Sequence record: AF234173.1
DNA: 64,000 bases
Source of the DNA: Escherichia phage P1
Direction: 5' to 3' (one strand)
This document shows, piece by piece, positions 2,674-64,000 of this stretch. The translations under genes were made by a program, and so were the position numbers. Numbering within the stretch: the first letter of the stretch is position 1; each line of letters starts with the position of its first letter. The notes under the pieces were generated by a model. The model was not told the DNA's origin, searched no databases, and worked only from the letters and a program-made list of their open reading frames with translations.

Positions 2674-2685
2674 TGACAAGTGACT
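2674..2685 (+). promoter_or_regulatory. Late-promoter-like motif TGACAAGTGACT upstream of mat
   Basis: Member of a recurrent ACAAGTGACT / AGTCAYTTGTT motif family found 5' of late operons in this window. Confidence 0.3.
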
Positions 2686-2826
2686 TCAGTCAGAATCATC
2701 ACACGCCCGGTACGGATGGATCCCTTTTCAAATATTCCATGGACGGCACAGTCTGAGTACCGGGCGCTACCTTCAGTTGTATTGCTAAGCCGCCGCTGGT
2801 GGCTTTTCTTTTTTGTAGGGGGCGCT

Positions 2827-6502: not shown

Positions 6503-7697
<1,195 letters not shown>

Positions 7698-10468: not shown

Positions 10469-13400
10469 TTATGCGTATTGTTGGATGACGGCCAGAACGT
10501 CCGCCACGTTGTGTTTTGTCTCGATAATCCACCAGTTACCCGGGAAATCGCTGTTCTTCGCCTTCGCTGGCAGCCAGCGAGCGCCGAATTTCGTCTTGAT
10601 TGCGTCTTTCGCACGGAAAAGAACGCCTTTCATGCCTGAGGCTTCCTGAAGCCCAAATACCTCGCCAGCGGCGAATTTTGGTGCGTACATCATCTTCAGG
10701 TCGGCGGTGGATACGCGATAATTCAGACCAAGAGACTGAGCTATGCTGGTGGCATCACCCTGTATTGATGATAACTCTTCTTGTTTCTCGTTTCTGGCGG
10801 CAATTTCTTCCTCCGTGATGTTGCCAAGGGCCAGGTTTATCCGATCAGCGTCGGCCTGTTTCTCTTCATCGGTGCGCCCGGCAAGAACCGTGTTAATTCT
10901 CTGCAATATCTCCACATGATTCTTGCGCATGCTGAGCAATTCCGGCGTAACCTCGTTAAGATCCACCAGCCCAAGGATGGCAAGGTCGGAAAACATTGAT
11001 ACCAGGTTGTAGGTCATGCGATAGCTGAGTTGGCCATAGGCTGATGGCAACTGCACCGCATCCATTTTATAGGCATCCATAAATTTAGAGCCGTCGTTTA
11101 CGACATCCGCAATTGCCGGTGTGATTTTCCCTGTGGTGGCGGCCTCCCTGATTGCTGTTACCCACGATTGAGTCAGTGCGGCGACTGCATGATTCAGATT
11201 GGCTTCCCGTTCTGCTGCGATGCGCGCGCTTGCTGCGTCCATTGCCTGCTTGATCTCGGCTTTATTGCTGTAAATGCCAATGGTGCCAAACTGTGCTGTG
11301 GTGATCTCATAATCTGACGCCCGGAACTCATGGGTACCGAAAATGGCATTGGTGACCTCAAGTTCAGAATCCCCGTTACGAGTAGCCCCCTGGCTTGTTT
11401 TCTCCGGCATTCTGGCGATCGCATCCGCTATTTTCTCCTGAATTGCTTCAGGGGATAGCGTATCTCCATATGACGCGATTACATCGCCATAATTGGAGCC
11501 AAACAGTTCAGTCAGGAATACTTCTGCCAAACGGACCTGGCGGTTATTCCCTTCAGACATCATACCAAGCACCCATTTTGCAATTGACGACTTCAGCGCG
11601 CCGTCACGGCGATCCGGGTAAACCGCATGCTTCAGTGGGTCCGTATAGGTACCAACAAAATCAATGCTATAGCCTGACTCTGTAGTCTGAACGCCGTATG
11701 AGTCAGTGATTTTGATCATGCCGCGCTGCTGGAAACGGTAGAAATCGTCACAGGAAATGATGTCGTTAATCCCGGCGATGGAGACGCCACCACTGATTTT
11801 CTGCATAACAGCATCTTCATCGGGAGTTACATCCACCTGTTTATCCAGCGTCTTCACATCCCAGTTACCCGATTTGGTGCCTTTGAAGGTAAAGATGATC
11901 TCCACGTCTGCGCGCTGGCTGTCGAAGTCCAGCGACTTAATGCGAACGATATCACCGGCACAATCGTAGTATTGGCCTACACGCCATGAGCGATCGCCGA
12001 TAACAAGGAACTCACTCGCATGGTTAACCAGGTCAGGATCAACATCCAGAATGCCTTTATTTATTGCATCCTCCACCAGCGGGCGCAGGCGTTTGATATC
12101 CGTCGCGGCCTTCTGAGTACGGTTCAATAATTTCTCATAGGGGGAGATGGCCTGAGAGATATTAGCCTTGCGCTGAATGGCGCTTTTCAACGACGCGCGA
12201 TACTGTGCTAACAACATACGGTCTGTGTGATGGACGCTACCCCAGCGGGCTTTCCAGTCTGCGTTATCAGCTGCTTTGGCCATTACCGCCTGTTTGAATT
12301 TAGCTACCTCGGCGGTGGTCTTTTCAAGTTCCGCTTTGCTTCGCTCTAATTCAGCGGTAAGTACCTCCACATCCTCGCCAGCTGCGTGCTGCGCCTTGAT
12401 GTAGTTCTGAAGGTCGATAGTAGCCTGTTCTTTCTGGCGAGCGCGTTGCGCGGCTTTCGCCTTATCCATTTGAACCTGCATCATTGCCAGACGTTCGCCA
12501 TCATCCTTAGCGGTATACATCTGCATTTCGATCATATCGTTGGCGTCGGCGTTCTCCATTTCAGACTTATCTGAGCGGAGGATATCGGAGATCCAGCCTG
12601 CTTTACGCTTCAGCGTCTTCAGTCGGTATTCATCGAAAGAACCCTTGCCGCAGTAGTAGTGAACGCGAACGCTTGCACGGTTGGAACCAACTCGGGCACC
12701 GCGACCGTTACGCTGTGCGATACTGGCTGGTGTCCATGGCAACGTCAGATGATGGATGTCAGTCGTTCCTCGATGCAGGTTGATACCCACCTCTGCCTTT
12801 TTGTTGCAGATGATGATCGGAGTCCGGCCCTCCTGGAAGTCGGCAGCAATCTTTTCCAGCCCGCCCAGCGACATTTCATTTTGCTGCGCGATATAGGCGT
12901 CATACAGAGCCATTTGCTCGTTGTATTTCGCTATCTGTGCATCTGTTGGTTCATCCGGTAACTCTTTCGGCGGTTTAACCGCTTTCAGTTTCTTACCGGT
13001 TTTACCTGCCTCGGCAACCGTCTGAGCATTCAGGATCCCCACCTTTGAAGGTTCAAGGTTAAGAGCATTGCAGATAATGCGCTTGAGCTTCTGGTGCTGC
13101 GTTTTTTCATCGGTGAAGATGATTTGCTTACCTTCCGGGAAAAACTCCTTCAGCGTGGCGATCAGCTTCGCGTATTTTGGTGTAACGGGGTGAGTTACGG
13201 TCTGTTCGTCAATGCCAAACCTGGCCAGGCGCTTATTCACTTCCTGCTCGAACGCTTCCGGAACCTGCAACTGAATAAACTCGCCCTTATCTATCAGGGA
13301 GTATTGCGATTGCTGCGTGATTGAATCATCACTGTCGTCGTCTTCGCTGGTGGCTTGTTTAGGCAAACTGTCCGCCAGCTGCTGCACCGCATCGGCGTAC

Positions 13401-16400
13401 TCCGGCAGGAAACGATAGGTGATCCGGCGATAGTACAGGTCCATGTCAGTACATACGCGGTCCATATCCCTGATTATTGAGAAGATCGGACGGGCTTTCT
13501 CGTGCTCAATCACGCCGTCTTCATTGACCGAGGTCGTTACGCCATTGTTGGCTTTGGCTGCCGCTTCCGCCTGCTGACGCAATTCTTCATACGCCGCCAG
13601 TTGTTCTTCAGTAAGTGGCGCATCCTGCTGGTGTTCGTCCAGCTCCGGGATCTCCACGGTATCCTTAACGTCTTCCGCTGTTTTAAGCGTTGTCCAGCGA
13701 TGGAATATGCCGCGCAGCGCATCAAGGTTTTCAAAGCCCACCAGCGCCATTTTTTCTTCAACTTCACCGCTGATTTTCTGTACCGTTTCCAGCCTGGTCT
13801 TGCCGAAGAATTTAACGAAGTCATCAGGACCGTAGATCCCCATCTTCTGCCAGTATTCTTTCGGCAGAACATGAGAAAGCATGTTGTATGCATCGATCGG
13901 GGTGTTAACGACTGGCGTTGCAGTCAGGAGAACCGGTCCGCGCCCGCCATTCTTTTTCATCAGGTACGCGTTTTTGATTGCCATATCTCGCGCCGATTGC
14001 GCCACCGCGCTGGTGGGCAGATAGGCCAGCTGTGACGCTTCGCGACCATTTTTATAGCTATTGCGGTAGTTGTGGCCTTCGTCGGCGATCACGCTGTCGA
14101 AGCCCATATCCTCAAAGTACGGATACTTCTCTGCTTTTTCGGTACCGGTATCTGAATACTCCGACAATACCCGGCGACGCGCCGCCTCTTTGCGATGGGA
14201 ATCGGAATCCATTGCGCTGGCTACGCGCCCGGCGGCAACGAAGTCATAAAGCATATCCTGTGCATGCTCATCTACGGTGTCATCACGTAGCGGAATGCGG
14301 GCGTATTGTTCTTTGGTAAACACGACTGCACGGTAATTTGAGTGCGGGATCGCATTCATCCGCGCCGTGATAGTGGCTTCATCTGCCAGCTTAAGAGCAT
14401 CGCGCATAACTGGAGTGCCATCAGTACCAAGAACAGGTTTACCGTTCTCATCGAGCACCGGCACCTGGCGAATCTGATCGCCATCCATCAGCACATCAAG
14501 ACCGACGAACAGGTAGTTACTGAATGCCTCTTCACTCAGGAACTCTTTTGCTTCGTAATACCAGTTTTCCAGCACTGATTTAGGCACTACATAAGCAGTA
14601 CGGGTGGAGCGACCGTTCTCATAGTTGAACGCCTCAAGCGCCAGCGCGGTCGTGGTTTTACCCAGCCCGGTGCCGAAGCCCAGGATGCCGCGCCCATCTT
14701 CGGACAGTCGGCGCACCTCGCTATTCTGGTAATCAAATGGCTGGCGCTTACCGCTTAATCCCTTCAACCCAAGCGGATCGCCAGAGTGTTCATACGGGAT
14801 ATTGCTATTGAACACATCGTTGTATTTGGCAACCAGCTCATCGTAGCGATCGTGCGTCTTGATCCACTTATTGAACTGGTCCTCAAGCAGTGCCATCTGC
14901 TCGCGGTAGCCGTTCGCCGTCGCGCTATCTTTGCCACCGATACGCGCACCATTGAGATACTTTTCCAGCTGTGCCGGGAACCCGGTCGCGTTTTCACCTG
15001 ATTTACGGTCCCACTCGTAGCGGATCTCGCCTGTTTCTTTATCCTTGCGCTGGACGACACCGTATCGGTGCCCGACGAACAGACCATCACCACCGTGATA
15101 GGTGTCAGAAACCATTTCGTCGCCTTCCAGCTGCACTGACTGCACATAGCGCAGATCCGGATAGCCGTTTTCCTGCAAAAATTCCAGAATGACGGAACGG
15201 TCGAACCAACGGCTATTGAGCTTAAACCGGATATTCTCTGCTGGCGTCTTGATGCGCTTCTCTTCGATCGCTGCCAGCTGATTAAGGACGTTGTTCTTTA
15301 CTGGACCGTCGGTGAGCGTGGCGAGGAATTCCTGTTTTGGAGCCACTATCTCGTTAATGTCGCCGCTGGTGGCGCGGGCGAACGGAACAATCCCGCCATA
15401 CGGTGAAACCGCAATGCCAGGGGTGCTGGCCAATAAATTAAGCAACTCGTCATCACTGGCTGGCAGTTCGCCGGTAAACGCAAGGCGGAAATCATCGAGC
15501 TGGATTGGATCGCGAGTGAGATCACTGTAGAGATAACGCAGGGTGTCCTGATAGCTGGTGGAGTCATAACTGGCGCTGGAATCATGCGTAACCAGTTTTC
15601 CTGTCAGCTCGTCAGAAATAGTGCCATCCAGCTTAATTGCACCACGGAAAGCAAACCAGGCGCGCGCACCGCTTCCCGATAATTTAGCTATCGGACCGCG
15701 ACCGGGGTTACCAAAACGGTCAATCTCTGCCTGCAAACGGGATACCAGAGAAAGGCGCTGCTGTTCGATTTGTTCAGCACTATGCCCGGCGGCCTTCATA
15801 TCCTGATATTCAATTAACATCCGGCCAATCATCGCCCCGCGATACAAGCGTTCACGGTATTTTTCAGGCTGGCTGTTAATCCAGTCCACCAGCTGCACCA
15901 TATCGTCGCTGATTGATGTGGTGTACTTATCGCGGACATTTGCCATCTGGGTAAATGTCATACCGAGACGGCCTTCTGTTGTAGTCAGGTTACGCTGAAG
16001 AGCCTCCCAGCTGTCCGCGCCATAACTGGCAACATCAATCTTCAGCTCCTTCCCGGCATCAGATTCAATCCAGCGACCACCAGCATATTTTTGCCATACG
16101 CCATTAATCAGGCGCATTTCCCCTTCATCAACAACATCTGCGGTCGGTGACGGTTCAGCCATATCGAGCAAATACCAGTCGATACGGCTTTCGAAACAAT
16201 GAATCAGCTTCGCTTTAAGAGCCTGGTTATCAATCTGACCGTCGGCACGAACCTCAATACGCCCCTGGAAGCCCTTTTCCTGGGTGCCATGAACAAACCG
16301 GCGGCCGTCCTTTTCAAACCACTTGCCAGAAATAAACGTTGGCCAAAGCACATTTGCCGATTCGAGAGTGCTTTCATGCACCAGGGGGATTTTCTCAGCC

Positions 16401-17236
16401 ATCTCTGCCGGATGTTTGCGCATCAGCACCACATCAACGACTGTACTGGTCCCGTTTGCGTCAAAAGTACCGGTAGGCAAGCGGTGAGCGCCAAGAAATT
16501 CAGCTTTACGGGATAAGCGCAGGCGTAACCGCTTCATGTTTGAACCTGAAACAATGGACGGCGGCACAATCACACACATGAATCCGCCAGGTTTTATCTT
16601 GTCCAGCATGCGGAGCATGAAGTAAGACCCCATGTCCGTTTCTTCTGCGTAAGGCTTATCGATGTTGCGTGTGTTATCACGACCGCCGAACGGAACGTTA
16701 CCCACAACATGGTCGAATGAATCGTTAGGCGTGCTTACAGCCAGTTGTTCGAACGGGGAAATCTGTACGCTGTCTTCCGGATGTAACAGCTGGTTTATAC
16801 GACCGGAAACACTGCTGATCTCAGTCGCGGTCATCACCGTACCAACCGGTTTTGTCTCATTAAAAACGCCGGTGCCCGCCGATGGTTCCAGAGTGTTACC
16901 TACGTCCGCGCCGTAGAGCTTCATGATCTCCCAGACACCTTCAGCGATCGGCTTTGGTGTGTAATATTCGGAGACGGACCCGCCAATGCCGCCTTCACCG
17001 GTGTACCCAGCCAGGATCTGGCGCTGTTCATCTGTCAGTGTCGCGCCGTCCACCAGCGAATTAAGCAAATCTATCGCCTTCTGATTCGCCTCCCGGCGCA
17101 GTCGGTCATAGCTTTTGCCTTCCACCTTTTCCACGCCGTATTTAATCGGCGCTCGGTGAGATGTTATTGCCCTAATGTATTTCAATATTTCGCTGACACT
17201 TGAACAGCGAAACACCCCCATAGATAGCTTGTTCAT
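10469..17236 (-). CDS. darB: DarB antirestriction protein: giant methyltransferase-helicase fusion
   Basis: 2255-aa ORF; SAM-binding-like motif LEPSAGTGVF and NVPFG near the N-terminus; Walker A GTGLGKT and DEGH box (VIADEGHNY) further in. Confidence 0.9.
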   Translation of the reverse strand: MNKLSMGVFRCSSVSEILKYIRAITSHRAPIKYGVEKVEGKSYDRLRREANQKAIDLLNSLVDGATLTDEQRQILAGYTGEGGIGGSVSEYYTPKPIAEGVWEIMKLYGADVGNTLEPSAGTGVFNETKPVGTVMTATEISSVSGRINQLLHPEDSVQISPFEQLAVSTPNDSFDHVVGNVPFGGRDNTRNIDKPYAEETDMGSYFMLRMLDKIKPGGFMCVIVPPSIVSGSNMKRLRLRLSRKAEFLGAHRLPTGTFDANGTSTVVDVVLMRKHPAEMAEKIPLVHESTLESANVLWPTFISGKWFEKDGRRFVHGTQEKGFQGRIEVRADGQIDNQALKAKLIHCFESRIDWYLLDMAEPSPTADVVDEGEMRLINGVWQKYAGGRWIESDAGKELKIDVASYGADSWEALQRNLTTTEGRLGMTFTQMANVRDKYTTSISDDMVQLVDWINSQPEKYRERLYRGAMIGRMLIEYQDMKAAGHSAEQIEQQRLSLVSRLQAEIDRFGNPGRGPIAKLSGSGARAWFAFRGAIKLDGTISDELTGKLVTHDSSASYDSTSYQDTLRYLYSDLTRDPIQLDDFRLAFTGELPASDDELLNLLASTPGIAVSPYGGIVPFARATSGDINEIVAPKQEFLATLTDGPVKNNVLNQLAAIEEKRIKTPAENIRFKLNSRWFDRSVILEFLQENGYPDLRYVQSVQLEGDEMVSDTYHGGDGLFVGHRYGVVQRKDKETGEIRYEWDRKSGENATGFPAQLEKYLNGARIGGKDSATANGYREQMALLEDQFNKWIKTHDRYDELVAKYNDVFNSNIPYEHSGDPLGLKGLSGKRQPFDYQNSEVRRLSEDGRGILGFGTGLGKTTTALALEAFNYENGRSTRTAYVVPKSVLENWYYEAKEFLSEEAFSNYLFVGLDVLMDGDQIRQVPVLDENGKPVLGTDGTPVMRDALKLADEATITARMNAIPHSNYRAVVFTKEQYARIPLRDDTVDEHAQDMLYDFVAAGRVASAMDSDSHRKEAARRRVLSEYSDTGTEKAEKYPYFEDMGFDSVIADEGHNYRNSYKNGREASQLAYLPTSAVAQSARDMAIKNAYLMKKNGGRGPVLLTATPVVNTPIDAYNMLSHVLPKEYWQKMGIYGPDDFVKFFGKTRLETVQKISGEVEEKMALVGFENLDALRGIFHRWTTLKTAEDVKDTVEIPELDEHQQDAPLTEEQLAAYEELRQQAEAAAKANNGVTTSVNEDGVIEHEKARPIFSIIRDMDRVCTDMDLYYRRITYRFLPEYADAVQQLADSLPKQATSEDDDSDDSITQQSQYSLIDKGEFIQLQVPEAFEQEVNKRLARFGIDEQTVTHPVTPKYAKLIATLKEFFPEGKQIIFTDEKTQHQKLKRIICNALNLEPSKVGILNAQTVAEAGKTGKKLKAVKPPKELPDEPTDAQIAKYNEQMALYDAYIAQQNEMSLGGLEKIAADFQEGRTPIIICNKKAEVGINLHRGTTDIHHLTLPWTPASIAQRNGRGARVGSNRASVRVHYYCGKGSFDEYRLKTLKRKAGWISDILRSDKSEMENADANDMIEMQMYTAKDDGERLAMMQVQMDKAKAAQRARQKEQATIDLQNYIKAQHAAGEDVEVLTAELERSKAELEKTTAEVAKFKQAVMAKAADNADWKARWGSVHHTDRMLLAQYRASLKSAIQRKANISQAISPYEKLLNRTQKAATDIKRLRPLVEDAINKGILDVDPDLVNHASEFLVIGDRSWRVGQYYDCAGDIVRIKSLDFDSQRADVEIIFTFKGTKSGNWDVKTLDKQVDVTPDEDAVMQKISGGVSIAGINDIISCDDFYRFQQRGMIKITDSYGVQTTESGYSIDFVGTYTDPLKHAVYPDRRDGALKSSIAKWVLGMMSEGNNRQVRLAEVFLTELFGSNYGDVIASYGDTLSPEAIQEKIADAIARMPEKTSQGATRNGDSELEVTNAIFGTHEFRASDYEITTAQFGTIGIYSNKAEIKQAMDAASARIAAEREANLNHAVAALTQSWVTAIREAATTGKITPAIADVVNDGSKFMDAYKMDAVQLPSAYGQLSYRMTYNLVSMFSDLAILGLVDLNEVTPELLSMRKNHVEILQRINTVLAGRTDEEKQADADRINLALGNITEEEIAARNEKQEELSSIQGDATSIAQSLGLNYRVSTADLKMMYAPKFAAGEVFGLQEASGMKGVLFRAKDAIKTKFGARWLPAKAKNSDFPGNWWIIETKHNVADVLAVIQQYA

Positions 17237-17247
17237 TGGTAATCCTT

Positions 17248-17258
17248 AACAAGTGACT
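17248..17258 (+). promoter_or_regulatory. Late-promoter-like motif AACAAGTGACT in the darB/prt divergent region, about 55 bp 5' of prt
   Basis: Same motif family as at 2674, 20980, 46619 and 58834. Confidence 0.35.
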
Positions 17259-17302
17259 AGTGTTAAATTCCGTTCAAACACGATGTGAATTATTCTAATT
17301 AA

Positions 17303-20882: not shown

Positions 20883-20979
20883 AAAGACCTCATAAGCGAA
20901 TTTTTACGCTCCAGGACAAACACCCATTCACAGCCAATACCGACTGACTCGATCCCTTTAGAAGACACAGGATAATGCA

Positions 20980-20990
20980 AATCACTTGTT
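20980..20990 (-). promoter_or_regulatory. Late-promoter-like motif (AATCACTTGTT on + strand) about 100 bp 5' of lyz
   Basis: One mismatch to AGTCACTTGTT. Confidence 0.3.
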
Positions 20991-21014
20991 AGCTACGTTT
21001 CAAAGATATACATT

Positions 21015-24552: not shown

Positions 24553-27529
24553 TATTTAGCTCCTTTGCCACACCTAATAACAGTTCCAGCAATCCGTCAC
24601 CATTCATCAGTGATGCGGCAGCGGCCTCTTTGTCATGATACAACTGAAGAGCCATAGAGAATACTTCCGTTGCTGACGTTTTGGAAATAGTCGGAGATTT
24701 CTGCCGAATTTTCCCGGTGTTACTTACTGAGGCTGGCGGGTATACCTTCGCCATATAAATATTACTCAATCGAGATCTGAAGCACCATTCAGGCTTGCCA
24801 CGCCCACCGATATTGACGAAAGATGGCTTATCCCCTTCAACATTGGCCTTCAGGAATGACCGGGCTTTCTCTAACAAACCAGGGTTACTGTACTCAAGAT
24901 GATGACCCAGCTCGTGCCACAGTGCACTTGCATTTTCATCGTTCAAATTGACAGCAACAACACCATTAAGATTTGCATATGCCCTTCCCTGGTGGTGAAC
25001 TACCTTTGATAAGGTCGATATTTTCCCGCCGGTCAGGCGATAAATATCAGCAAGTTCCTTGCGCAGGTCTATCCCACCATTCTGTCCAGCGCGGACTTCT
25101 TCCACTTCTTCTGTGATAAAAGAGTCGGCCCACTCAAGAGCTTTTTCTTCAGATACGTATGAGTTTGCGATCGCACTGTTCATGGCAGATAACACTTTCT
25201 CGTGGACCGAACCCATACTTCGCTGATTCATTTGCCAGCGTGTCTGCGGGTTATATGAGAATCGCTTAAGTAGTTGGTCAAGCTGCTCAAGTTCTTCTTC
25301 ACTGACATACTTTTTAGCCTCACCAATAATGCCAGGGAGAATATTGCCGTTAGGATTAAACGCTCGCGAAAGGAAGAGTTTCAGTACCCCCATGCCCTCC
25401 GATGCTTCAATATCACCAATAACCCGGTTAACAATGGCCGCACTCTTCGGATTAGCATCCGCCAACGCTCTGGCTACGATTTGCAGGGACGATACGACCT
25501 CACGCTGCATATCAGTCCTGATCTCATCAATAAACTCTGGCGTTATACCGTGCTCTTTAAGGATATCCCGGCCTTCCGCCGTTACCCCATCGATATCACC
25601 GACATGTTTATTAACACGACTTTGCAATGCCTTAAATGCCTTCAGAATTCCACGGGCATCATCCGCTTTACTAACGGCCTTCCTGAATGCTGTCAAGAAG
25701 TCTGAGTTAACCTCATTTTGTTGATCGGCCCACTGAATGGAGGCATCTTTCATCTCGTCCAGAGTCAGATCACCCAACGCGGTATGGTCTGTGAATATGA
25801 GCGACAACCTCTGAACCATTTCTGCCAATGATGATGCCGAATGCGCCGCGCTAAGGAATGCTTTCACCCTGGTTGGGCGAATGGAAAACCAGTCAATAGC
25901 TGGTGGCATATCTCCGTTTTTTATCGCCTGCGCTATCTCGTCAAAGCCATCGCGCCCAAGGGAGGATGCGTGATTTAACAAGCCGCGAAGTAACGAATTG
26001 CTGATACCGAATAATCGGCACCATTTTTTCACGTCGGCAACAGGCATTCGAACAAAATGCGCAAGCACTTGTACAAGCTGTTCATCATGGGGATCTGTAC
26101 GGGAAAGCAGCCTGATCAGATGAATAATGTCTTTGATGCCGGATGCCCGATGTAATAGCAAACTGGTATATGGAGCAACACCGTTGTAACTACCGCCGGA
26201 AACGGACTCGAAAAGACCGCCGGATATCCCTTGCATGCCTTCGTTTTCCAGTTCCTGAGACACCTGGCGAAGGATATCCTGTAACGACACATCGCCGCCG
26301 CCAAACATATCCCCCAGCGCCTGGCCCTGGTGCTGTAACTCATCATTGATACGTTGAGCCATCAACTTAAAGGCGGTGGCCATACGCTTCGCGCTACGGT
26401 TATTCGCGACGATGAACAACGCGAGTGCTTTCACTTCCGGGGCCGTTTCGCTGAACATATCCCCCTGAGCAATAACATCGGTAATATGCTGGCCTGACTC
26501 CTTCGATTGCCTTACCAGGTCTACCGCATCTTTCAATGCCGCCAGCGCCTTTTTATCGAGGCTATCCGCTGTCTCAATGCCATCAACAATAGTTGTCACA
26601 GCCTGCTTGTGCGCTTCTCCTGATAAAGCCTGCATCTGGACAAAATCATTGGCTGCCGCATTAAGCGCCGTCAGAACATTACGCATATCCGGATCAGGTT
26701 CTTCTGCAACCATCCTTACCAGGCGCGCATCCTTATATGCCTTGGCAAAGATCGCGTTTTGTATACGGTCTACAAGTTGCCGTGTTGGTCGCCCATCTTC
26801 AGTTACAAGGCCAGCCGCCTGTGTGGCACCAACTTGCGTCATAAATCCGCGAATAAACGCGTCATTACTGCGGCTAAGCAGATCTCCGCTTTCTGACGGG
26901 TTAAAAAGCGCCATCATCGCCGGTGTTATGCTGTCGGCATCAACAAAAGCCTTTTCACTGGCTGCCATTTCCTGAAGATCAGAAATATTTGAGTCCTTGG
27001 CAAACTGAACGCGGTCAACCTTAGTTAACCGGCGGCGCACCAGTACCGGAGCCGTCATTGATTCAACCTTTTCAGGAGGTATGCCGAATTCGGTCGCATG
27101 ATCAATCAGGTACTCACGATACCGATCCGCATTGCCGTCCTGATAGGCTTTGATGATCCCCATGGTCCGTCCATTACCTGACTCAACGGCATTGTCCTCA
27201 CCAATTATCGGCGCGCCATGGCTGGATAAACCGGAATCGGTAAGCTGGGCAGGACGCAAATCCTTGGATATCTGGTTGACCTGAAGAAGACTGGATGCGC
27301 GGGTCCGGTCGCGCGGCTGAAGTTCCTGGGGATAGTCAGGGTTAATTTTCCCGTCCAGAGTATTGGATACCAAAAGAGCCGAGGCATCGACGATATCAAA
27401 CGCTGTTTTTACCTCGTCACCCTTCGCTGTCACCACATACGAAACCCGCCCGAAATCGGGCAGGTTCTTTAGCAGCTCGATCAGCGTTTCTATGCTGGTG
27501 GCCATTACCACCTGATCGCTTAAGCTCAT
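24542..27529 (-). CDS. ddrB: DdrB, large head-internal antirestriction component
   Basis: 995-aa ORF immediately downstream of ddrA/darA in the same operon. Confidence 0.7.
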   Translation of the reverse strand: MSLSDQVVMATSIETLIELLKNLPDFGRVSYVVTAKGDEVKTAFDIVDASALLVSNTLDGKINPDYPQELQPRDRTRASSLLQVNQISKDLRPAQLTDSGLSSHGAPIIGEDNAVESGNGRTMGIIKAYQDGNADRYREYLIDHATEFGIPPEKVESMTAPVLVRRRLTKVDRVQFAKDSNISDLQEMAASEKAFVDADSITPAMMALFNPSESGDLLSRSNDAFIRGFMTQVGATQAAGLVTEDGRPTRQLVDRIQNAIFAKAYKDARLVRMVAEEPDPDMRNVLTALNAAANDFVQMQALSGEAHKQAVTTIVDGIETADSLDKKALAALKDAVDLVRQSKESGQHITDVIAQGDMFSETAPEVKALALFIVANNRSAKRMATAFKLMAQRINDELQHQGQALGDMFGGGDVSLQDILRQVSQELENEGMQGISGGLFESVSGGSYNGVAPYTSLLLHRASGIKDIIHLIRLLSRTDPHDEQLVQVLAHFVRMPVADVKKWCRLFGISNSLLRGLLNHASSLGRDGFDEIAQAIKNGDMPPAIDWFSIRPTRVKAFLSAAHSASSLAEMVQRLSLIFTDHTALGDLTLDEMKDASIQWADQQNEVNSDFLTAFRKAVSKADDARGILKAFKALQSRVNKHVGDIDGVTAEGRDILKEHGITPEFIDEIRTDMQREVVSSLQIVARALADANPKSAAIVNRVIGDIEASEGMGVLKLFLSRAFNPNGNILPGIIGEAKKYVSEEELEQLDQLLKRFSYNPQTRWQMNQRSMGSVHEKVLSAMNSAIANSYVSEEKALEWADSFITEEVEEVRAGQNGGIDLRKELADIYRLTGGKISTLSKVVHHQGRAYANLNGVVAVNLNDENASALWHELGHHLEYSNPGLLEKARSFLKANVEGDKPSFVNIGGRGKPEWCFRSRLSNIYMAKVYPPASVSNTGKIRQKSPTISKTSATEVFSMALQLYHDKEAAAASLMNGDGLLELLLGVAKELNNAD

Positions 27530-30857: not shown

Positions 30858-31183
30858 TTCCCGCCTCCCTTTTTCACCAAACTTGTAAGAACATTCAGAA
30901 TGCTATCGATATTCACTCGTTTCATCCCTGAAATCACCTCATGACCGTTATTGCTGGCTATCGTTACCATTAAGTACGTAATTGATAACTCCCAGCCCTC
31001 GTGTTGCCCCAATAGGTACGCCACCGCGCCAGCTGTCACTGCAACAAAGATCTCCGTAACCAATCCCAACAAATTGCCAGACTGGCGACCGTCTCGGACA
31101 TCCATCAGGAACGTGCCTATCCCACCAATTACTGAAAGCAGGAGCGCAATAGCAACTGGAGCTAATTCCTGTGTGTCAAGCAC
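30854..31183 (-). CDS. lydA: LydA-like holin
   Basis: 109-aa ORF with hydrophobic transmembrane-like segments and a charged C-terminus. Confidence 0.6.
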   Translation of the reverse strand: MLDTQELAPVAIALLLSVIGGIGTFLMDVRDGRQSGNLLGLVTEIFVAVTAGAVAYLLGQHEGWELSITYLMVTIASNNGHEVISGMKRVNIDSILNVLTSLVKKGGGK

Positions 31184-31250
31184 AAGTTCCCTCCTACGTT
31201 GTCAGGAGGTAATGGTATGCAAAGTAACTTCTCAACCGGTCATTTGTTGC

Positions 31251-55416: not shown

Positions 55417-57006
55417 TTACTTAATAAGCAGCGGTACGCCCTGGATACGACGGGCTACGCCAGTCGGGCAGCAGGCCCAGACTACTTCCCATTTATCGAA
55501 TTCCGCCTGCGTAACTTTCAGCACATACGGTTCTGTACCGTCAGCATCAGGATCACGAGGAGCCACCAGAGCGCCGGAGGCGACAAAGCGATCTAAAAGT
55601 TTGGTCATCCCTTTAGTCAGGCCAGCCGCAGTAATACCGTCCGGGCTATGCTTCATCTGTCGGGCTAACTGGACAAAGAAACGGCTGATTGCATTCATCA
55701 GGGATGGGACGTGCTGGAAGTGCAGATAGTTATCCTGCGTGCAGCAAGTTAAAGCATCGTCGATGATCATCTGGCCAGAGGTGCCAACAGATACTTTATT
55801 GAGACGGCCCTTGACCATTGCTTCTTCGTCCGGGGTATCTTCCGGATACAGCGGTTGAATTGACGCACGAGCAATGACGGCACGTTCTTCACCAGCCGGT
55901 GAGTAATGCCAACCACCGACATCAGAGTTTTTCTTGACGCCACGAGCTTTCGCCGCATACGCCACGCCAGACAGACCAAAGACCACACGGGATTGGGTCC
56001 ATTTGTCTTTGCAGGAGAACGGGTAGTGATAGACAGAACAGCTTACATAATCGGTACCAAGTAAACCGGTATCCTCAACAGCTGGTAGTGCTTCTGCGTA
56101 CGTTAATGTCGGTTTGACATCAAAGAAGCCATCAATCAGGCGATCTGCACAGATTTTACCTAATGCGGTGATAGCCGCATTGTCATAGCAGCCCAGGCCA
56201 AGAACAGCGGTGTACATGTACGGCGCATTGTTCAGCACTTTCACCGCACGCAGGTACGCAGCGGTTGAGATTTTCGACTGATCACCGTTGGTACCACCAG
56301 TGAACGCCAACGATTTTTTATTTGTTACTTTCGCCGTCGAAATCAGCTCTTCATTAACAACCGCGCGCAGATATTTAGAACGGGCTTCCAGAGCCGTAGG
56401 CAGATAACACAAGCGGCCCATGTCATCTTTCGCTTCTTCCGCCAAAGACACAGTGTGTGTCTCCAGGGTCGTTACCACACCGAGCGAAGTCGTCTGGGTC
56501 AGTTTTAAGAGGAAGCGTTCATTACCCGCGCTGTCCGCTGTTGCCGTTTCGATGGTTAACTCACGGGTAGGTGAAATACACGGATCACCATCATCAACGT
56601 AGATAGCAAAGGCTTCGCCACTATCAAGTTCAATTTCAGAACCGTATGGCAACGCACTGTAAGCCGGTTCGCCTGATTCATCGAACATAATAATCGGGAA
56701 CTTCGCATCATCCGGAACAGCGCGAACAACGTAACCAGACGTTTGCTGAATAGCTTCGTATACATGGCGAATTGGTTCGAACTGTGAGCCGGAAGACGGC
56801 TTCAGCGGTTCGCCGAGAACATCTTCGTAATTGGACTCAGTAACCGCAAGAACAGTAAACGGCTTGCCACGCGCAAATACGCCAATACCAGCCCACAAGC
56901 TGCTATTTAATGCAACACCGGTAGATAACGTCGCATCGGCATTGATCGGGCTAACCGCGACGCCGGATGCATTACCTAATGACTGTTGAATTGAATATTG
57001 AGACAT
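55417..57006 (-). CDS. 22: Tail sheath protein
   Basis: 529-aa ORF, ATG with AGGGAAAG upstream; size and position match P1 gene 22. Confidence 0.65.
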   Translation of the reverse strand: MSQYSIQQSLGNASGVAVSPINADATLSTGVALNSSLWAGIGVFARGKPFTVLAVTESNYEDVLGEPLKPSSGSQFEPIRHVYEAIQQTSGYVVRAVPDDAKFPIIMFDESGEPAYSALPYGSEIELDSGEAFAIYVDDGDPCISPTRELTIETATADSAGNERFLLKLTQTTSLGVVTTLETHTVSLAEEAKDDMGRLCYLPTALEARSKYLRAVVNEELISTAKVTNKKSLAFTGGTNGDQSKISTAAYLRAVKVLNNAPYMYTAVLGLGCYDNAAITALGKICADRLIDGFFDVKPTLTYAEALPAVEDTGLLGTDYVSCSVYHYPFSCKDKWTQSRVVFGLSGVAYAAKARGVKKNSDVGGWHYSPAGEERAVIARASIQPLYPEDTPDEEAMVKGRLNKVSVGTSGQMIIDDALTCCTQDNYLHFQHVPSLMNAISRFFVQLARQMKHSPDGITAAGLTKGMTKLLDRFVASGALVAPRDPDADGTEPYVLKVTQAEFDKWEVVWACCPTGVARRIQGVPLLIK

Positions 57007-57021
57007 AACTTTCCCTGTTAT

Positions 57022-57040
57022 GCGCCCCGCACGGGGGCGC
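57022..57040. terminator. GC-rich hairpin GCGCCCC-gcacg-GGGGCGC between genes 23 and 22
   Basis: Perfect 7-bp stem but no U-tract; may be an RNA structure rather than a terminator. Confidence 0.3.
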
Positions 57041-57066
57041 TATGTTAAACGGAGAACTTCCCCTGA

Positions 57067-58773
57067 TTACTCAGAGTCACCGGCATCAATCGTGTCGCCG
57101 CTAATGAAGTTAAGCCCGCCTTTTTTGGCCATTGTCAGCGTTACACGAGTGAAGTAATCAGCGCCGTTGCGTGGGTGCATATCGTTGATAGCCGAACCCC
57201 ACAGCGTGGTACGGTTGACCAGCGCCGGAGTGGTCGGATGCTGGAACGGGATGGCCGGGACAGCATCACCAGTCACGAAGCCTGCTTTACCCGGATTTTC
57301 ATCACGGACGTAGCACAGCACATCCATCGAGCTGAACTGAATGTTCTCTGTCGTTAAGTTCTTACAAATACCAGCAGGTACTTCGTACACTTTCACGTTA
57401 CCGAACAGGGTACCGATGTAGTGAACATACGGAGTCTGGATATAGTCTTCGGCTGGCTGGAAGAAATCCTTCGGCAACTGTTTGAAGAAAGATGCTGCAT
57501 CAGCACCAGCAAACATCCCCATCGCACCAGAAGATTTAACGCGCTCAATAATGTCGCGATATACAGTCTGGAATTTGCCACGAATGATGGTTGCCCATAC
57601 ATCAAAGGACTGGTTAACCGGCAGAGCGATGTCAAAGGTGTCGGTCGCAAGAGTGCGCCAGATCATGATGCGAAGACGCAGCATATCCTGTTCATGAGAC
57701 AGGTATTCCTTCAGGGTGCGGAACTGTAGGGAACCCAGGTCCAGACCAAATTCACGCTGTGCTTCATACGCCGCCTGTACCGTGTGCTCAGCCGCGATAA
57801 CGAACTGACTTGGGAACAGGGTGTATTTCTTCATTTCGTGGTTGATCAGCGGGATCAGCTCAGGAGCGGCTTCAATATTGATTTCCGTCTCAATTGCGAT
57901 CTCAGTGCCTTTATCCGGCGCTTTGGAGAACGACAGGGCAATCTGACCAATGTTGTAGTTCAGAGAGCAGGTAACAGTGATTTGCTCACCAGCAGCATTA
58001 GTAAACGAGTGAAGTAGGCTGCCGGAACCGTTATCAACAACAGACTTAATACGGTTAACGTAGATGTTAGTGCGACCTTTTCGGATTGGTACATTCTGGC
58101 CTTCGAAGTCTTCCATCTTGAAGGTTGCGGTTTTGCTGGTGCCATCGGAGCTTGCCACCAGCACATAGCGGCGACGTAACTGGCTGTACACACCGACGGA
58201 TTGCATGTCCAGAACATCACCAGCAGCATAAGAACCAAAAGATGAACCTGCCACGTTAAAGACTTCATAGATGTCGGACTGGTCACGCGTAACCGGAATG
58301 AAGGTACACGCATCAGCGGTAGCTGCCCCCAACTGAACAGGCAGGATCATCGCGAGGAATAAAGGCAGACGCATAACACCGTCAGAAACGCTCATCATCT
58401 CTGCTGCGACAGATTCCAGCATCGCTTTATTAGTGGCATCCATGCTATTGCGGGTGGACTCTATCAGGCAGTTTTCCAGCGTCTGGTGGCAGGAGGCCAG
58501 AATTTCCGGACGCGGCATAGATTTATGTGCTGCGGCGTAGTCAGCCAGTGCACTTGCCCACGCTGTAGCGATTTGAGCGGTGGCATTATCAGAGATACCC
58601 GCAAAAACCGGGTCTTTACGTGCAGCTTCAAGGATAGATGCGGCACGCGCGGCATCATCTTTAATGAATTGGTTATCAGTACCGAACTGCGCAGTGCTTG
58701 CCCAGCCAAGCACAGCTTTAGAGCGTTTTGCGATATCTGCAATACGATTCTGGTATTCGCGTAAGTTACTCAA
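57067..58773 (-). CDS. 23: Major capsid protein precursor
   Basis: ORF 57067-58794; the most plausible start is TTG 58773 with AAGGAAG 6 nt upstream (567 aa); no in-frame ATG nearby. Confidence 0.7.
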   Translation of the reverse strand: MSNLREYQNRIADIAKRSKAVLGWASTAQFGTDNQFIKDDAARAASILEAARKDPVFAGISDNATAQIATAWASALADYAAAHKSMPRPEILASCHQTLENCLIESTRNSMDATNKAMLESVAAEMMSVSDGVMRLPLFLAMILPVQLGAATADACTFIPVTRDQSDIYEVFNVAGSSFGSYAAGDVLDMQSVGVYSQLRRRYVLVASSDGTSKTATFKMEDFEGQNVPIRKGRTNIYVNRIKSVVDNGSGSLLHSFTNAAGEQITVTCSLNYNIGQIALSFSKAPDKGTEIAIETEINIEAAPELIPLINHEMKKYTLFPSQFVIAAEHTVQAAYEAQREFGLDLGSLQFRTLKEYLSHEQDMLRLRIMIWRTLATDTFDIALPVNQSFDVWATIIRGKFQTVYRDIIERVKSSGAMGMFAGADAASFFKQLPKDFFQPAEDYIQTPYVHYIGTLFGNVKVYEVPAGICKNLTTENIQFSSMDVLCYVRDENPGKAGFVTGDAVPAIPFQHPTTPALVNRTTLWGSAINDMHPRNGADYFTRVTLTMAKKGGLNFISGDTIDAGDSE

Positions 58774-58833
58774 TTTACTCTTCCTTAAACACAAGGCACT
58801 TGTGTGAATCCCTTTTCGGAAGAGATTTTATTG

Positions 58834-58844
58834 AAAGTCACTTG
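58834..58844 (-). promoter_or_regulatory. Late-promoter-like motif (AGTCACTTGTT on + strand, within palindrome AAAGTCA-cttgt-TGACTTT) 5' of gene 23
   Basis: Best example of the recurrent motif; about 60 bp upstream of the capsid gene start. Confidence 0.35.
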
Positions 58845-58909
58845 TTGACTTTCTCGTGACAAGCAATTTTTTTATTTTTTTCGGGAGGAGGGGAGGAAGG
58901 TAAAATCCA

Positions 58910-58995
58910 AGGTGAAATCGTGGCGATTTCACCTTGAAATTTTAGAGTAATTTACTTTAAAAACAGTCAGTTAATAGTGAAATTTGAATGGCGAA
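58910..58995. other. parS: parS partition site: ParB box A heptamers (ATTTCAC/GTGAAAT) and box B hexamers (TGGCGA) flanking an AT-rich IHF-type core
   Basis: GTGAAATCGTGGCGATTTCAC at 58912-58932 and GTGAAATTTGAATGGCGA at 58977-58994, ending directly at the parB stop. Confidence 0.8.
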
Positions 58996-58998
58996 AGT

Positions 58999-60000
58999 TT
59001 AAGGCTTCGGCTTTTTATCGAGGCTCTTTCTAAGGATATGCCCAATCATCCTGTCGAGTTCTTCCTGTAACTCTTTTGAGAGTCGATTAAACTCATAAGA
59101 AAATGCACGGCCTTTCACGCGCTTCCTTGCAAAGCGATCCTTGTCCTCAAATTTCCATAATTCAGTAACTACGGACTTATCTTTAGAACCTTTATCCGTG
59201 AGTAGTGAGGCTTCCTTTGTTATCAAGCGCAGGATTTTATTTTTAACTTCATCTTCGGCCATTTCTTCAATGGATAAGATGTCGTTTATTTCCGGGGATA
59301 TGTTTTGAATAAGCTGATCAAACTCTAAATTCTTGTTCCCCATTTCGTCGCCAACAGCACAAAGCGTTTTGTAGTCCGAAAAGGTTAATTCCGACTGCAC
59401 AGGGAAAAGGGCGACTAATTCTTCCGGAGCACTCGCTGCCTGGAGAGCACGCGTGACCTTCGCCTGAGACAGCCCTTCTTTGGCTGCAATATCCTTCTGA
59501 CTCATCCCATCATTTTTCATTCGCATCAAACGCAGACCTATTTCTCGAATGCTGTGCTGCAATGCTGTCTGAACGTCTTTCGCTAAATTTTGCGCTTCCT
59601 GAACGCTGATCTCCTGGTCCGTGACTAAAACCCGCAACCCTACGTTCTCTAAGATGGCAGAAGCTCGACGCCGGGAACCATCCAAAATTTCAATTTTCCC
59701 TGTAGCCCGTCTAACACCTATTGCAGGGTAAAATTGCTGATGCTTAATAGTGCTTCGGATACTTTTTAATGATTTTGGCGTAAGAGATGCCTGGTCACGC
59801 CCGTTGTTATGCTGATCAACAAAGGTATCGCTTTCTACCTGGTTCGGAGGTATTACCTCTTCAATAAATGTGGCCTGGCGACCAGTTGATAACTTGAATA
59901 CCTGCTCGACTCGATCGCCAGAGGCTGAAGAACTATCAAATCCGCTTAATATTGAAGGATTAAGGGTTCGCCCAATTGTTGGTCTGTTTTTCTTTGACAT
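58999..60000 (-). CDS. parB: ParB partition protein
   Basis: 333-aa ORF recognised as P1 ParB. Confidence 0.95.
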   Translation of the reverse strand: MSKKNRPTIGRTLNPSILSGFDSSSASGDRVEQVFKLSTGRQATFIEEVIPPNQVESDTFVDQHNNGRDQASLTPKSLKSIRSTIKHQQFYPAIGVRRATGKIEILDGSRRRASAILENVGLRVLVTDQEISVQEAQNLAKDVQTALQHSIREIGLRLMRMKNDGMSQKDIAAKEGLSQAKVTRALQAASAPEELVALFPVQSELTFSDYKTLCAVGDEMGNKNLEFDQLIQNISPEINDILSIEEMAEDEVKNKILRLITKEASLLTDKGSKDKSVVTELWKFEDKDRFARKRVKGRAFSYEFNRLSKELQEELDRMIGHILRKSLDKKPKP

Positions 60001-60016
60001 GGGGGTTTCTTACTCC

Positions 60017-61213
60017 TCAGTTAGATCTGATAAATTCAATACGGTCAAAAACTGCTTTAGCAAAATCTTCCGCGGCAATTCGCGCGTTCTTCAATGCATC
60101 AGCACTACCAACATACGTTGCCGGGTTAGCTGAAATAACAGTGTCAAAAGACTCGCCGCAGCGTTCAAAACCGTCAAGGCGAGGGAGGAAGACATCAAGC
60201 ATATCCCCACCGAACACTTCTTTAGCCAGGCTATGGCAATACTTATGGTCTGCCTTGTTACTCAACTTGGACATAAAACCAATGTTAGTCGCAAGCTGGC
60301 ACTCGCAGCCTTCATCCGAAATGAGTTTCACCAACTCAGGAAGGCGGGCAACGTATTTAAGCGATGAGTGGAAATCGACAGTTGCTGGCGGCAGAGGTGT
60401 AAACAGTATATTGGCCGAGGCCAAAGCATTTTTCAGGAAGGCGTCAAGGTGAGGACCACTATCAACGAGGATAAAGTCATAATCGCTCTTCAGCTTATCA
60501 ATCACATTTTCTTTCAGGACAGCATGGATGTTCTGACCCGGTAGATGCTCATTGCACAGCTCTCTCCAATCGGATGCAATAAAGGCATCGTCAATCGACG
60601 CAGGCATAACGTCAACCCCAGGTACAACAGAAGGAACAATAAACTCCTCTAACAGCTCTTCACGGCTTACATTCTGCAACATAGCCTGTGCAGATGTTGC
60701 GTTTACGATACCAATAGAGTGTTTATGGCTTAAAAACATCGTTGCTGAAGATTGCGGATCAAGGTCAATAACCAGAATCCTTAAATCCTCCATAAGAAGA
60801 TGAGGGTGAGCACGCATTGCATGCGCCAGAGAAACCGTCGATACAGTTTTTGACACACCGCCTTTAAGATTGGAGATGAAAATCACATACGCTTCGCTGT
60901 AGCGATCCCGGTATTTTGGCACTCCGCGATGTTCATATATGTCAATGATGTTCTGAATTGACATCGCATATTTCATTGAAGAGCCAGCAGGGCGTTTATC
61001 GAAAACATAACCCTTTTCTTCCATTTCACTTACGGCATAGTCAACGTTCGCTCGAGTCAGTAGAGGCAATTTTGCCAGTGCCGCTTTCGCATAGACCTGG
61101 TAAAACTCGTTCGCGTGTAGCTCATCCTTTTGCAACTGTACTTGTTCAGTCAGAACATTGAGCATTCTGTTTGCTCTTTGAGCAACCTTGTGAAGCTGGC
61201 TGGAATCACTCAT
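60017..61213 (-). CDS. parA: ParA partition ATPase
   Basis: 398-aa ORF; deviant Walker A KGGVSKT; N-terminal DNA-binding extension. Confidence 0.95.
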   Translation of the reverse strand: MSDSSQLHKVAQRANRMLNVLTEQVQLQKDELHANEFYQVYAKAALAKLPLLTRANVDYAVSEMEEKGYVFDKRPAGSSMKYAMSIQNIIDIYEHRGVPKYRDRYSEAYVIFISNLKGGVSKTVSTVSLAHAMRAHPHLLMEDLRILVIDLDPQSSATMFLSHKHSIGIVNATSAQAMLQNVSREELLEEFIVPSVVPGVDVMPASIDDAFIASDWRELCNEHLPGQNIHAVLKENVIDKLKSDYDFILVDSGPHLDAFLKNALASANILFTPLPPATVDFHSSLKYVARLPELVKLISDEGCECQLATNIGFMSKLSNKADHKYCHSLAKEVFGGDMLDVFLPRLDGFERCGESFDTVISANPATYVGSADALKNARIAAEDFAKAVFDRIEFIRSN

Positions 61214-61485
61214 CGAAAGTCATCCTTTATGCTGTATTTTTGAATTTAATTAAAAATGCTGCATAAAATAATAATGTATGCGTAGATGCTTGTACATAGC
61301 ATTCTCTGCATGCTTACTCCTTTGCCAAGTGTGTCACAACATGCTTTGGCATCCTCCACGCATAAAGGACGCGGATTTCTTCTACGTTCAGGTTGTAGCC
61401 TGAATCATTTTGGTGATTTCCTGCTTCAATGGGCAGCCAAGCTTCACTCTCTATCAACTGGTGAGAACGGCTTGCCCGGCAGCTT

Positions 61486-61770
61486 CGATGTGTGCTGGAG
61501 GGAGAATAAAAGTCTAAGATGTGCGATAGAGGGAAGTCGCATTGAATTATGTGCTGTGGAGGGATCGCTGGTATCAAATATGTGTGCTGGAGGGAAAGGC
61601 AGAGAATTACATGTGCACTGGAGGGAAAAGCGGATGGACAGATGTGTGCTGGAGGGAAAGTCTGGGCAAACTGAGGGGCGTCCCCCTCCAGCGCACATCA
61701 AAAACAGGAAATTGGACAAGCCTTCCCGGCAGCACACATCTTTTTAATGCGGTTTCCCTCCAGCACACAC
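61486..61770. repeat. incA: incA: nine 19-bp RepA-binding iterons (GATGTGTGCTGGAGGGAAA family), six in one orientation and three inverted
   Basis: Iterons read directly from sequence at about 61486, 61517, 61548, 61577, 61609, 61640, 61680, 61721 and 61752. Confidence 0.85.
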
Positions 61771-62631
61771 TTATTCGGGGAGTTTCAGCTTTGGATTGCG
61801 AGAATGGACGATTACAAAACTTTCCCGGCCTTTCTTCTCAATAGAACAGTCGAGATAGCCGATTGTTTTAAGCTGTTCTATCGCTTTCTTAATGATACGG
61901 TTTTGCTCGCCAACAGCTGACTGCAAAGCCAGGCGCTCACGGATTCGCGCGAACGATAGCGGCAACGGGTTCTGCGGAAGGCTTTCGATGAAAGTGTAAA
62001 TGGCTTGTGCAGCTTCTTTCTTCGGAAGGGCACGCAAGGCGTGGTGTTGCAACAGAACGCGATAATCAAGCTGGAACAGCTCCCACAACTTCGAATCAGC
62101 CTCCAGCTCTATCAGATCAAGGTCAGCATCAAAACGCCCGACCTTCAGCAGACCAGTCTGATAGCCGCCTTTAGCATCTTTTCCGCGCTTAAAAGCGATA
62201 CCCTTGTTACGCAAGCGTCCAAGTGATTCATGAATGGTTAAACGCAGTTTCGCATCCAGACGTTTTGAGGGGAAACCACAGGCTTTAGCGAATTCCTGAA
62301 ACGATAACTGGATGGTGTTTGAGGACAAGCCGTATTTGCTGAACGCGTAGATGACACCGATCCACGTTTTGAAATCAGTATCCATATCGAGTCGAGGACC
62401 GGTGATTTTAATATCATCGTAACCCTCGGCTTTAGCTATCTCCAGCTGGGAAAACGCTTTGGTGGCATCAATCTCTTTACTTTCTCCTTTGCTCTTTGAT
62501 GGCTTCGGCACGAATACCCCCAAGCGCATCAACGCTACAGGCTGCACAGTGTTGTTTGAATTAACTGTTAGTTCTTTTGCCTTACTTTCAATGTCTGCGT
62601 AAAGAATATCGGAGATAAATGATTGATTCAT
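61771..62631 (-). CDS. repA: RepA plasmid replication initiator
   Basis: 286-aa ORF recognised as P1 RepA; flanked by iteron arrays. Confidence 0.95.
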   Translation of the reverse strand: MNQSFISDILYADIESKAKELTVNSNNTVQPVALMRLGVFVPKPSKSKGESKEIDATKAFSQLEIAKAEGYDDIKITGPRLDMDTDFKTWIGVIYAFSKYGLSSNTIQLSFQEFAKACGFPSKRLDAKLRLTIHESLGRLRNKGIAFKRGKDAKGGYQTGLLKVGRFDADLDLIELEADSKLWELFQLDYRVLLQHHALRALPKKEAAQAIYTFIESLPQNPLPLSFARIRERLALQSAVGEQNRIIKKAIEQLKTIGYLDCSIEKKGRESFVIVHSRNPKLKLPE

Positions 62632-63605: not shown

Positions 63606-63969
63606 TACCCGCCGCAACCAGTTGTTTCTGAACTTCAGCTTTTCGTTCCATTTGCCTGTCAGCATACTTGGCTTGTTCTGATTCATTTTTCACTTCCTGG
63701 CTGTGAAAATGTTGCTCTGCTTTGTTCATCGTCTCAATGGTCTGGTTAAGATCCATTATTGACTTATCACGTTCCTTAACAGCCTGATCAAGACTGCCAA
63801 TTTTCTCTATGGCTTGCTTTAGCTGATGACGTTCCCATGCAAACCCAGCACCAACAAGTGCGCAAATCAGAACAAGAACACCAGTAGCAGCAAGTTTCTC
63901 CTTCAAAGACAAAGCTGTTTTTAACGTAGAAAAGAATGACATGTCTTCCTCCTGAAGAAAAATTATCAA
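63520..63969 (-). CDS. Hypothetical membrane-anchored coiled-coil protein
   Basis: 149-aa ORF with one hydrophobic segment; overlaps the upstream part of the mlp ORF. Confidence 0.35.
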   Translation of the reverse strand: MIIFLQEEDMSFFSTLKTALSLKEKLAATGVLVLICALVGAGFAWERHQLKQAIEKIGSLDQAVKERDKSIMDLNQTIETMNKAEQHFHSQEVKNESEQAKYADRQMERKAEVQKQLVAAGNVRQRIPADTQRLLRESISEFNADADKG

Positions 63970-64000
63970 TGAAGTCCTTTGTTACTGTGCCGCTTTGTTT

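Follow-up and report, generated by a model that had tools for sequence, protein, structure and literature searches.

Lpa-box architecture of the late promoters in 64 kb of bacteriophage P1, with a candidate late promoter upstream of ppfA

Introduction

What is the short motif AGTCAYTTGTT that lies upstream of the major capsid gene of bacteriophage P1 and recurs before other morphogenesis and lysis operons? P1 is in standard use for transduction and cloning. The motif had been noticed in a sequence-only reading of the 64,000 nt of P1 DNA analysed here (the window), where it was proposed to act in late promoters as an element that a phage late activator recognises. The analysis identifies it with high confidence as the Lpa box ('-22 box') of the P1 late promoters for head, tail and lysis genes. 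Promoter architecture, specificity for late operons, conservation and timing of expression were assessed directly; Lpa binding, the requirement for SspA and sigma-70 dependence were taken from the literature.

Materials and methods

The window was compared with the annotated P1 records AF234172 and NC_005856. Megablast of positions 56000-62000 gave 100% identity at the same coordinates, and in a base-by-base comparison the window matched AF234172 nt 1-64000 apart from the placement of IS5 and about ten single-base differences. The IS5 copy of the window is located at about 6503 (region 6503-8850) and is reversed; that of AF234172 is at 7652-8846. None of the sites discussed is touched by these differences, so the coordinates and annotation of AF234172 were applied directly; the IS5 placement and the single-base differences indicate that the window stems from a P1 isolate or record other than the annotated AF234172. 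Sites were scored with a matrix of 23 columns, for which nine P1 sites were used as the training set. Orthologues of P1 late genes in Cronobacter phage JK004 were assigned by tblastn, and remoter P1-like elements were found via their PmgC homologues (53-68% identity). Expression values were taken from public RNA-seq data on P1vir infection (PMC8201110 Table S1; log fold changes, as tabulated, at 10 and 30 min). Pairing of promoter regions with downstream ribosome-binding sites was compared with 200 dinucleotide shuffles of the upstream part and with swapped upstream parts.

Results

The exact motif AGTCAYTTGTT was found three times in the window, at 17248-17258(-), 46619-46629(+) and 58836-58846(+), with 0.07 occurrences expected from shuffled sequences, none of which reached this count. 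When one mismatch was allowed, nine matches were obtained (2.28 expected; 0 of 100 shuffles reached nine), including 2675-2685(-) and 20980-20990(+). Together with the copy in the R-S region, which reads AGTAACTTGTC at 38329-38339, all six sites of the sequence-only reading were recovered 0-2 nt from where it had placed them, and the recurrence was confirmed; the copy at the capsid gene is at 58836-58846 rather than 58834-58844 and that at mat is at 2675-2685 rather than 2674-2685. The motif had been described as oriented with the downstream gene. Its orientation is indeed constant, but at every site the written string is on the opposite strand from the gene, and alignment of the sites gives AACAARTGACT in promoter sense.

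Seven late promoters are annotated within the window in the GenBank record of P1 (Table 1), each with a 9-bp '-22 region', a 4-bp spacer and a -10 hexamer. Genome-wide the annotated late promoters number 11, of which LP26, LPpmgL, LPhot and LPpac lie outside the window. The '-22 region', with the consensus AAGTGACTT, is annotated for every P1 late promoter, and the aligned promoters read RAC AAGTGACTT nnnn TAnnnT in promoter sense, with the 4-bp spacer present in 7/7 in-window promoters and the TAnnnT hexamer in 6/7, the exception being LPmat. On this alignment, AGTCAYTTGTT is the reverse complement of the AAC flank and bases 1-8 of the 9-bp '-22 region', and the core element is the 9-mer AAGTNACTT, placed 4 bp upstream of a TAnnnT -10 hexamer, rather than the 11-mer. 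Six of the seven annotated promoters had been listed from the letters; LPdar, with its box at 31222-31230(-), had been overlooked. The R-S copy corresponds to LPs, for which the GenBank record mentions an earlier identified promoter Ps and its -22 box. It had been rated as weaker, a rating that did not survive inclusion of the -10 hexamer: LPs, itself one of the nine training sites, shares the top matrix score of 28.7 bits.

Table 1. Late promoters, candidate promoter and inverted repeat in the window (sequences in promoter sense)
Feature	Coordinates	Annotated	Strand	Elements	Bits	Position	JK004 orthologue
LPmat	2674-2696	2678-2696	+	TGAC, box AAGTGACTT 2678-2686, -10 CAGAAT 2691-2696	27.6	19 nt before mat ATG	orthologous site present
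LPpro	17247-17269	17251-17269	+	TAAC AAGTGACTA gtgt TAAATT	28.7	42 nt before prt start codon	78000-78022
LPlyz	20969-20991	20969-20987	-	TAAC AAGTGATTT gcat TATCCT	25.5	86 nt before lyz	83366-83388
LPdar	31212-31234	31212-31230	-	TGAG AAGTTACTT tgca TACCAT	23.9	28 nt before lydA	
LPs	38318-38340	38318-38336	-	TGAC AAGTTACTT atct TACAAT	28.7	30 nt before R	3767-3789
LPsit	46608-46630	46608-46626	-	GAAC AAATGACTA ctcg TAGAAT	25.4	31 nt before pmgC	12089-12111
LP23 (flagged site)	58825-58847	58825-58843	-	CAAC AAGTGACTT tcaa TAAAAT	28.7	51 nt before TTG start of major capsid gene 23; predicted transcription start near 58818	
Candidate late promoter	63962-63984		-	TAAC AAAGGACTT catt GATAAT	13.2	19 nt before ppfA ATG	
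Inverted repeat	46583-46617		-	CTCGTAGAAT (46617-46608, LPsit -10) and ATTCTACGAG (46592-46583, pmgC Shine-Dalgarno GAGG); 10 bp			

When the window was scanned with the matrix, the seven annotated promoters came out on top (23.9-28.7 bits; leave-one-out matrix scores were 15.8-24.5 bits). All seven are intergenic and face a late gene (mat, prt, lyz, lydA, R, pmgC or 23), 20-87 nt before its start, and the composite pattern ACAARTKAYTW-N4-TANNNT had five matches in the window where 0.01 were expected. Relative to gene starts, the annotated sites lie before late and not before early genes: no match above 10 bits was obtained before ssb, kilA, c4/ant, ref, cre or rlfA, and the C1 operator motif precedes ref, ssb, c4, kilA and rlfA. 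The sequence-only reading had separated ssb, kilA and ant, as genes with operator-like sites in place of the motif, from the late operons, and for ssb, kilA and c4/ant this was borne out. As an absolute rule the early/late partition fails, because mat has both LPmat and a C1 operator close by (Omat, 2628-2645), the -10 of LPmat also serving the sigma-70 promoter Pmat, and because the box of LPlyz shares sequence with the -35 of P2ssb, a divergent promoter under C1 control.

The exact palindrome AAGTNACTT occurs seven times in the window (0.97 expected), and bare copies are also present within genes at 41412, 50736 and 54490; the box by itself is therefore insufficient and needs its -10 partner. 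These three intragenic copies, none of which is among the strong composite matrix matches, were treated as chance occurrences. A matrix match of 14.9 bits at 30900-30922(-), inside lydA and 43 nt before lydB, is likewise probably due to chance, since it has no counterpart among the best 25 JK004 matches. For the recurrence as a whole, an origin in chance or base composition, with no function attached, would draw on the fact that short motifs do recur by chance and on one-mismatch matches at 4747 (in res), 38247 (in R) and 31238 that are not annotated promoters. Against it, the exact and composite patterns exceeded all shuffles, the sites are found before late operons only and at a constant distance from the -10, and they form conserved islands in diverged genomes (see below); the shuffles and the scan of a second genome together refute this origin, which is given practically no credence.

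Two further box-like sequences were observed. The one-mismatch hit at 31238-31248 is part of AACAAATGACC at 31237-31248(-), 15 bp upstream of the annotated LPdar box; it has no usable -10, is missing from JK004 and could be an additional Lpa site or chance. Outside the window, a strong unannotated match, CAAC AAGTGACTG gtga TAACCT with 21 bits, is located at P1 76780-76802(-) (L004 12780-12802), inside gene 7 and about 45 nt past its start, where conservation is confounded by coding constraint; its JK004 counterpart is weak, at 7.8 bits.

No convincing -35 hexamer was found: the best match to TTGACA at 16-19 bp spacing had at most 3/6 identities at eight of nine promoters, the exception being LPmat, which overlaps Pmat. 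This bears on the reading of the box as an operator through which a repressor (C1/Lxc or another lysogeny factor) silences the late genes, with no activator involved. A palindromic core at -26 to -18 is a frequent repressor position, and a C1 operator does lie near mat. C1 operators, however, have another sequence (ATTGCTCTAAT...) and other locations, promoters that lack a -35 need activation, and Lpa is described as an activator bound to this repeat in PMC10695390 and PMC1891329. A repressor operator is accordingly considered very improbable.

Cronobacter phage JK004 is 72.5% identical to P1 in the stretch compared (the LP23 region). Upstream of the capsid gene, P1, P7 and JK004 share an identical block GTCAACAAGTGACTTTCAATAA between diverged flanks. 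When the P1-trained matrix was applied to the whole JK004 genome, the top nine matches lay before the orthologues of R, 23, mat, pacA, 26, prt, ppfA, lyz and pmgC, and nine matches of at least 15 bits were obtained where 0.18 were expected. In eight P1/JK004 promoter pairs, AC plus AAGTGACTT and the TA...T of the -10 were identical in 6-8 of the eight, compared with about 3/8 in the flanking columns; by this comparison, the conserved footprint between the two phages is the box and the -10 only. The remoter P1-like elements have the same geometry with lineage-specific boxes (ATGTAACTT, AACTCACTT and ATATCACTT/AAGTCACCT), as would fit a box co-evolving with its activator. When viral contigs were searched with gp23, nearly all the matches were near-identical P1-like elements, of little value for covariation.

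The leader of gene 23 (58774-58824(-)) was seen to contain nested inverted repeats, CTCTTCC/GGAAGAG over the Shine-Dalgarno sequence and CACACAAG/CTTGTGT, whose arms differ yet stay complementary in JK004 and in L092 (TTGTCCT/AGGACAA in the latter). Pairing in this leader showed no excess over the shuffle control.

Between 10 and 30 min of infection, the median rise was 6.8 for 37 genes behind nine well-matching promoters and 4.2 for 60 others (Mann-Whitney p = 2e-14 for late-promoter versus other P1 genes). In the same tabulated units hot rose by 3.4 and pmgL/pmgM by 4.0, and the annotated promoters of both fit the consensus poorly: LPhot has a 9-nt spacer instead of 4, and LPpmgL reached 10.8 bits despite its own inclusion in the training set of the matrix used. 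A late-like rise of 5.8-6.8 units was also noted for darB (10469-17236) and simABC (46786-48070), for which neither the annotation nor the matrix gave an upstream late promoter; the darB leader holds the LPpro box in reverse.

These values also bear on whether the box could be a symmetric binding site without direction of its own, the direction of transcription being set by the -10 alone. The 9-mer is a near-palindrome, its central base changes from G to C in relatives, and one box (P1 78495-78503) is annotated for both LP26 and the divergent LPpmgL. On the other side, the 5' RAC flank is conserved in P1 and JK004 (1.5-1.6 bits per position; 8/8 pairs) and the 3' side is not, and the divergent use at LPpmgL comes with just the low score and small rise given above. 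The argument from the flank is limited by the remoter lineage L095, in which AC is missing, so that the asymmetry may be clade-specific. A directionless box is regarded as unlikely.

Upstream of ppfA, the best unannotated intergenic matrix match in the window was found at 63962-63984(-) (Table 1), with a box two mismatches from the consensus. Its score is not significant alone, as about 1.4 matches of at least 12 bits per window are expected by chance; the orthologous site of JK004 reaches 16.7 bits, and both the box and the -10 persist across JK004 and P1-like plasmids, whose sequences differ in the spacer and in the segment leading up to the ribosome-binding site. PpfA and the overlapping Mlp are assigned by PHROGs to the Rz-like spanins, which serve late in lysis (no useful Pfam result was obtained for PpfA, Mlp or UpfA), and ppfA, mlp and upfA rise by a late-like 5.7-6.4 units from 10 to 30 min. 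The genes upfB and upfC, upstream of the candidate, are equally late in the RNA-seq data, which counts against it. A late promoter at this position is annotated in neither the P1 nor the P7 record, and 63962-63984 is probably an unannotated late promoter for the spanin pair ppfA/mlp. The whole upfC-upfB-ppfA-mlp-upfA cluster shows late-like kinetics, and weak box-like sites (8-9 bits) were seen before upfC at P1 65096-65118(-), outside the window, and at JK004 24775-24797(-).

In LPsit, LP23, LPdar and LPpac, sequence at the -10 or immediately following it can pair with the downstream ribosome-binding site, which suggested an anti-Shine-Dalgarno rule for P1 late promoters in general. Across ten P1 promoters such pairing was not above the null (0.33 vs 0.34, Wilcoxon p = 0.69); LPsit alone was individually significant, JK004 as a whole was above the null (p = 0.005), and the general rule was dropped with only LPsit kept. 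There, the -10 forms the 5' arm of an inverted repeat, the 3' arm of which covers the pmgC Shine-Dalgarno sequence (Table 1). A transcript initiated at LPsit would start in the hairpin loop, without the 5' arm, and the predicted unpaired probability of the pmgC ribosome-binding site was 0.16 with 45 nt upstream of the -10 and 0.61 from the LPsit start. Pairing exceeded that of shuffled controls in P1 (p = 0.035) and JK004 (p = 0.015). In an alignment of six homologous lineages 89% of cells pair, and the third base of the -10, a G or an A, changes together with its pairing partner, a C or a T; the observed score was reached by 32 of 500 shuffles, so that the covariation in this alignment is suggestive only. 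In L095, the seventh lineage, an unrelated 13-bp hairpin covers the end of the -10, the Shine-Dalgarno sequence and the ATG. Since the 3' arm covers the pmgC ribosome-binding site, read-through transcripts would be translationally silent, and according to the folding predictions the hairpin may confine translation of pmgC to transcripts that initiate at LPsit.

Neither the ppfA promoter nor the LPsit hairpin was found in the P1 and P7 annotation or in the papers covered. The joint proposal that an Lpa-type promoter at 63962-63984(-) drives ppfA/mlp and that the LPsit hairpin restricts translation of pmgC is put forward tentatively, as plausible rather than probable. Together, a ppfA promoter and a translational safeguard of pmgC on the tail operon could slightly improve the annotation of P1.

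Discussion

The proposal of a late-promoter element for a phage late activator is supported by the GenBank annotation, by position and orientation, by conservation, by the missing -35 and by the late RNA-seq kinetics of the downstream genes. The observation is correct but already known, P1 late promoters and the Lpa box having long been annotated; its value is that of a check: six of the seven in-window sites, and what they mean, were read correctly from the letters without tools.

The gene for the activator, lpa, maps beyond the window (P1 nt 89991-90443) and is preceded by a C1 operator; no paralogue was found within the window, the JK004 orthologue is 67% identical, and Lpa forms its own Pfam family (PF25716), for which no solved structure was found. 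Binding of Lpa, as an activator, to this inverted repeat is described in PMC10695390. PMC1891329, which summarises Hansen et al. 2003, describes Lpa as an activator with sequence-specific DNA binding that is thought to contact E. coli SspA directly; SspA, for its part, contacts RNA polymerase without binding late-promoter DNA itself. SspA bridges sigma-70 region 4 and the beta' zinc-binding domain (PMC7515715). In the mechanism proposed on these grounds, a late promoter consists of the 9-bp near-palindrome AAGTGACTT at about -26 to -18, usually preceded by RAC and followed by a 4-bp spacer and a sigma-70 type -10 (TAnnnT), with no usable -35 hexamer. Lpa (gp10) would be made early from a C1-repressed promoter and, following the literature, would bind the box, with the host RNA-polymerase-associated SspA as co-activator bridging Lpa to the sigma-70 polymerase. 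Transcription of the head, tail, lysis and packaging operons by the E. coli sigma-70 holoenzyme would then begin about 7 nt past the -10.

Compared with known systems, the loci are identical to the Lpa-dependent late promoters of AF234172/NC_005856 for the seven annotated sites, and the ppfA candidate is outside the annotated set. The Francisella MglA-SspA-PigR system is similar in that a DNA-bound activator is modelled to act via a polymerase-associated protein of the SspA family, and P1 Lpa/SspA is given as a precedent for that model (PMC1891329); it differs in its proteins, in its DNA element and in serving host virulence rather than a phage late switch. In T4, as in P1, late genes are positively controlled from promoters without a -35. 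T4 uses its own sigma factor gp55 together with gp33 and the element TATAAATA at -10, whereas P1 relies on host sigma-70 with Lpa and SspA and on a box at -22. The LPsit/pmgC arrangement resembles the leader of T4 gene e, where a late promoter occupies the 5' arm of an RNA hairpin masking the ribosome-binding site of read-through transcripts (PMC3014915), and a comparable restriction of translation to late-promoter transcripts may apply to pmgC.
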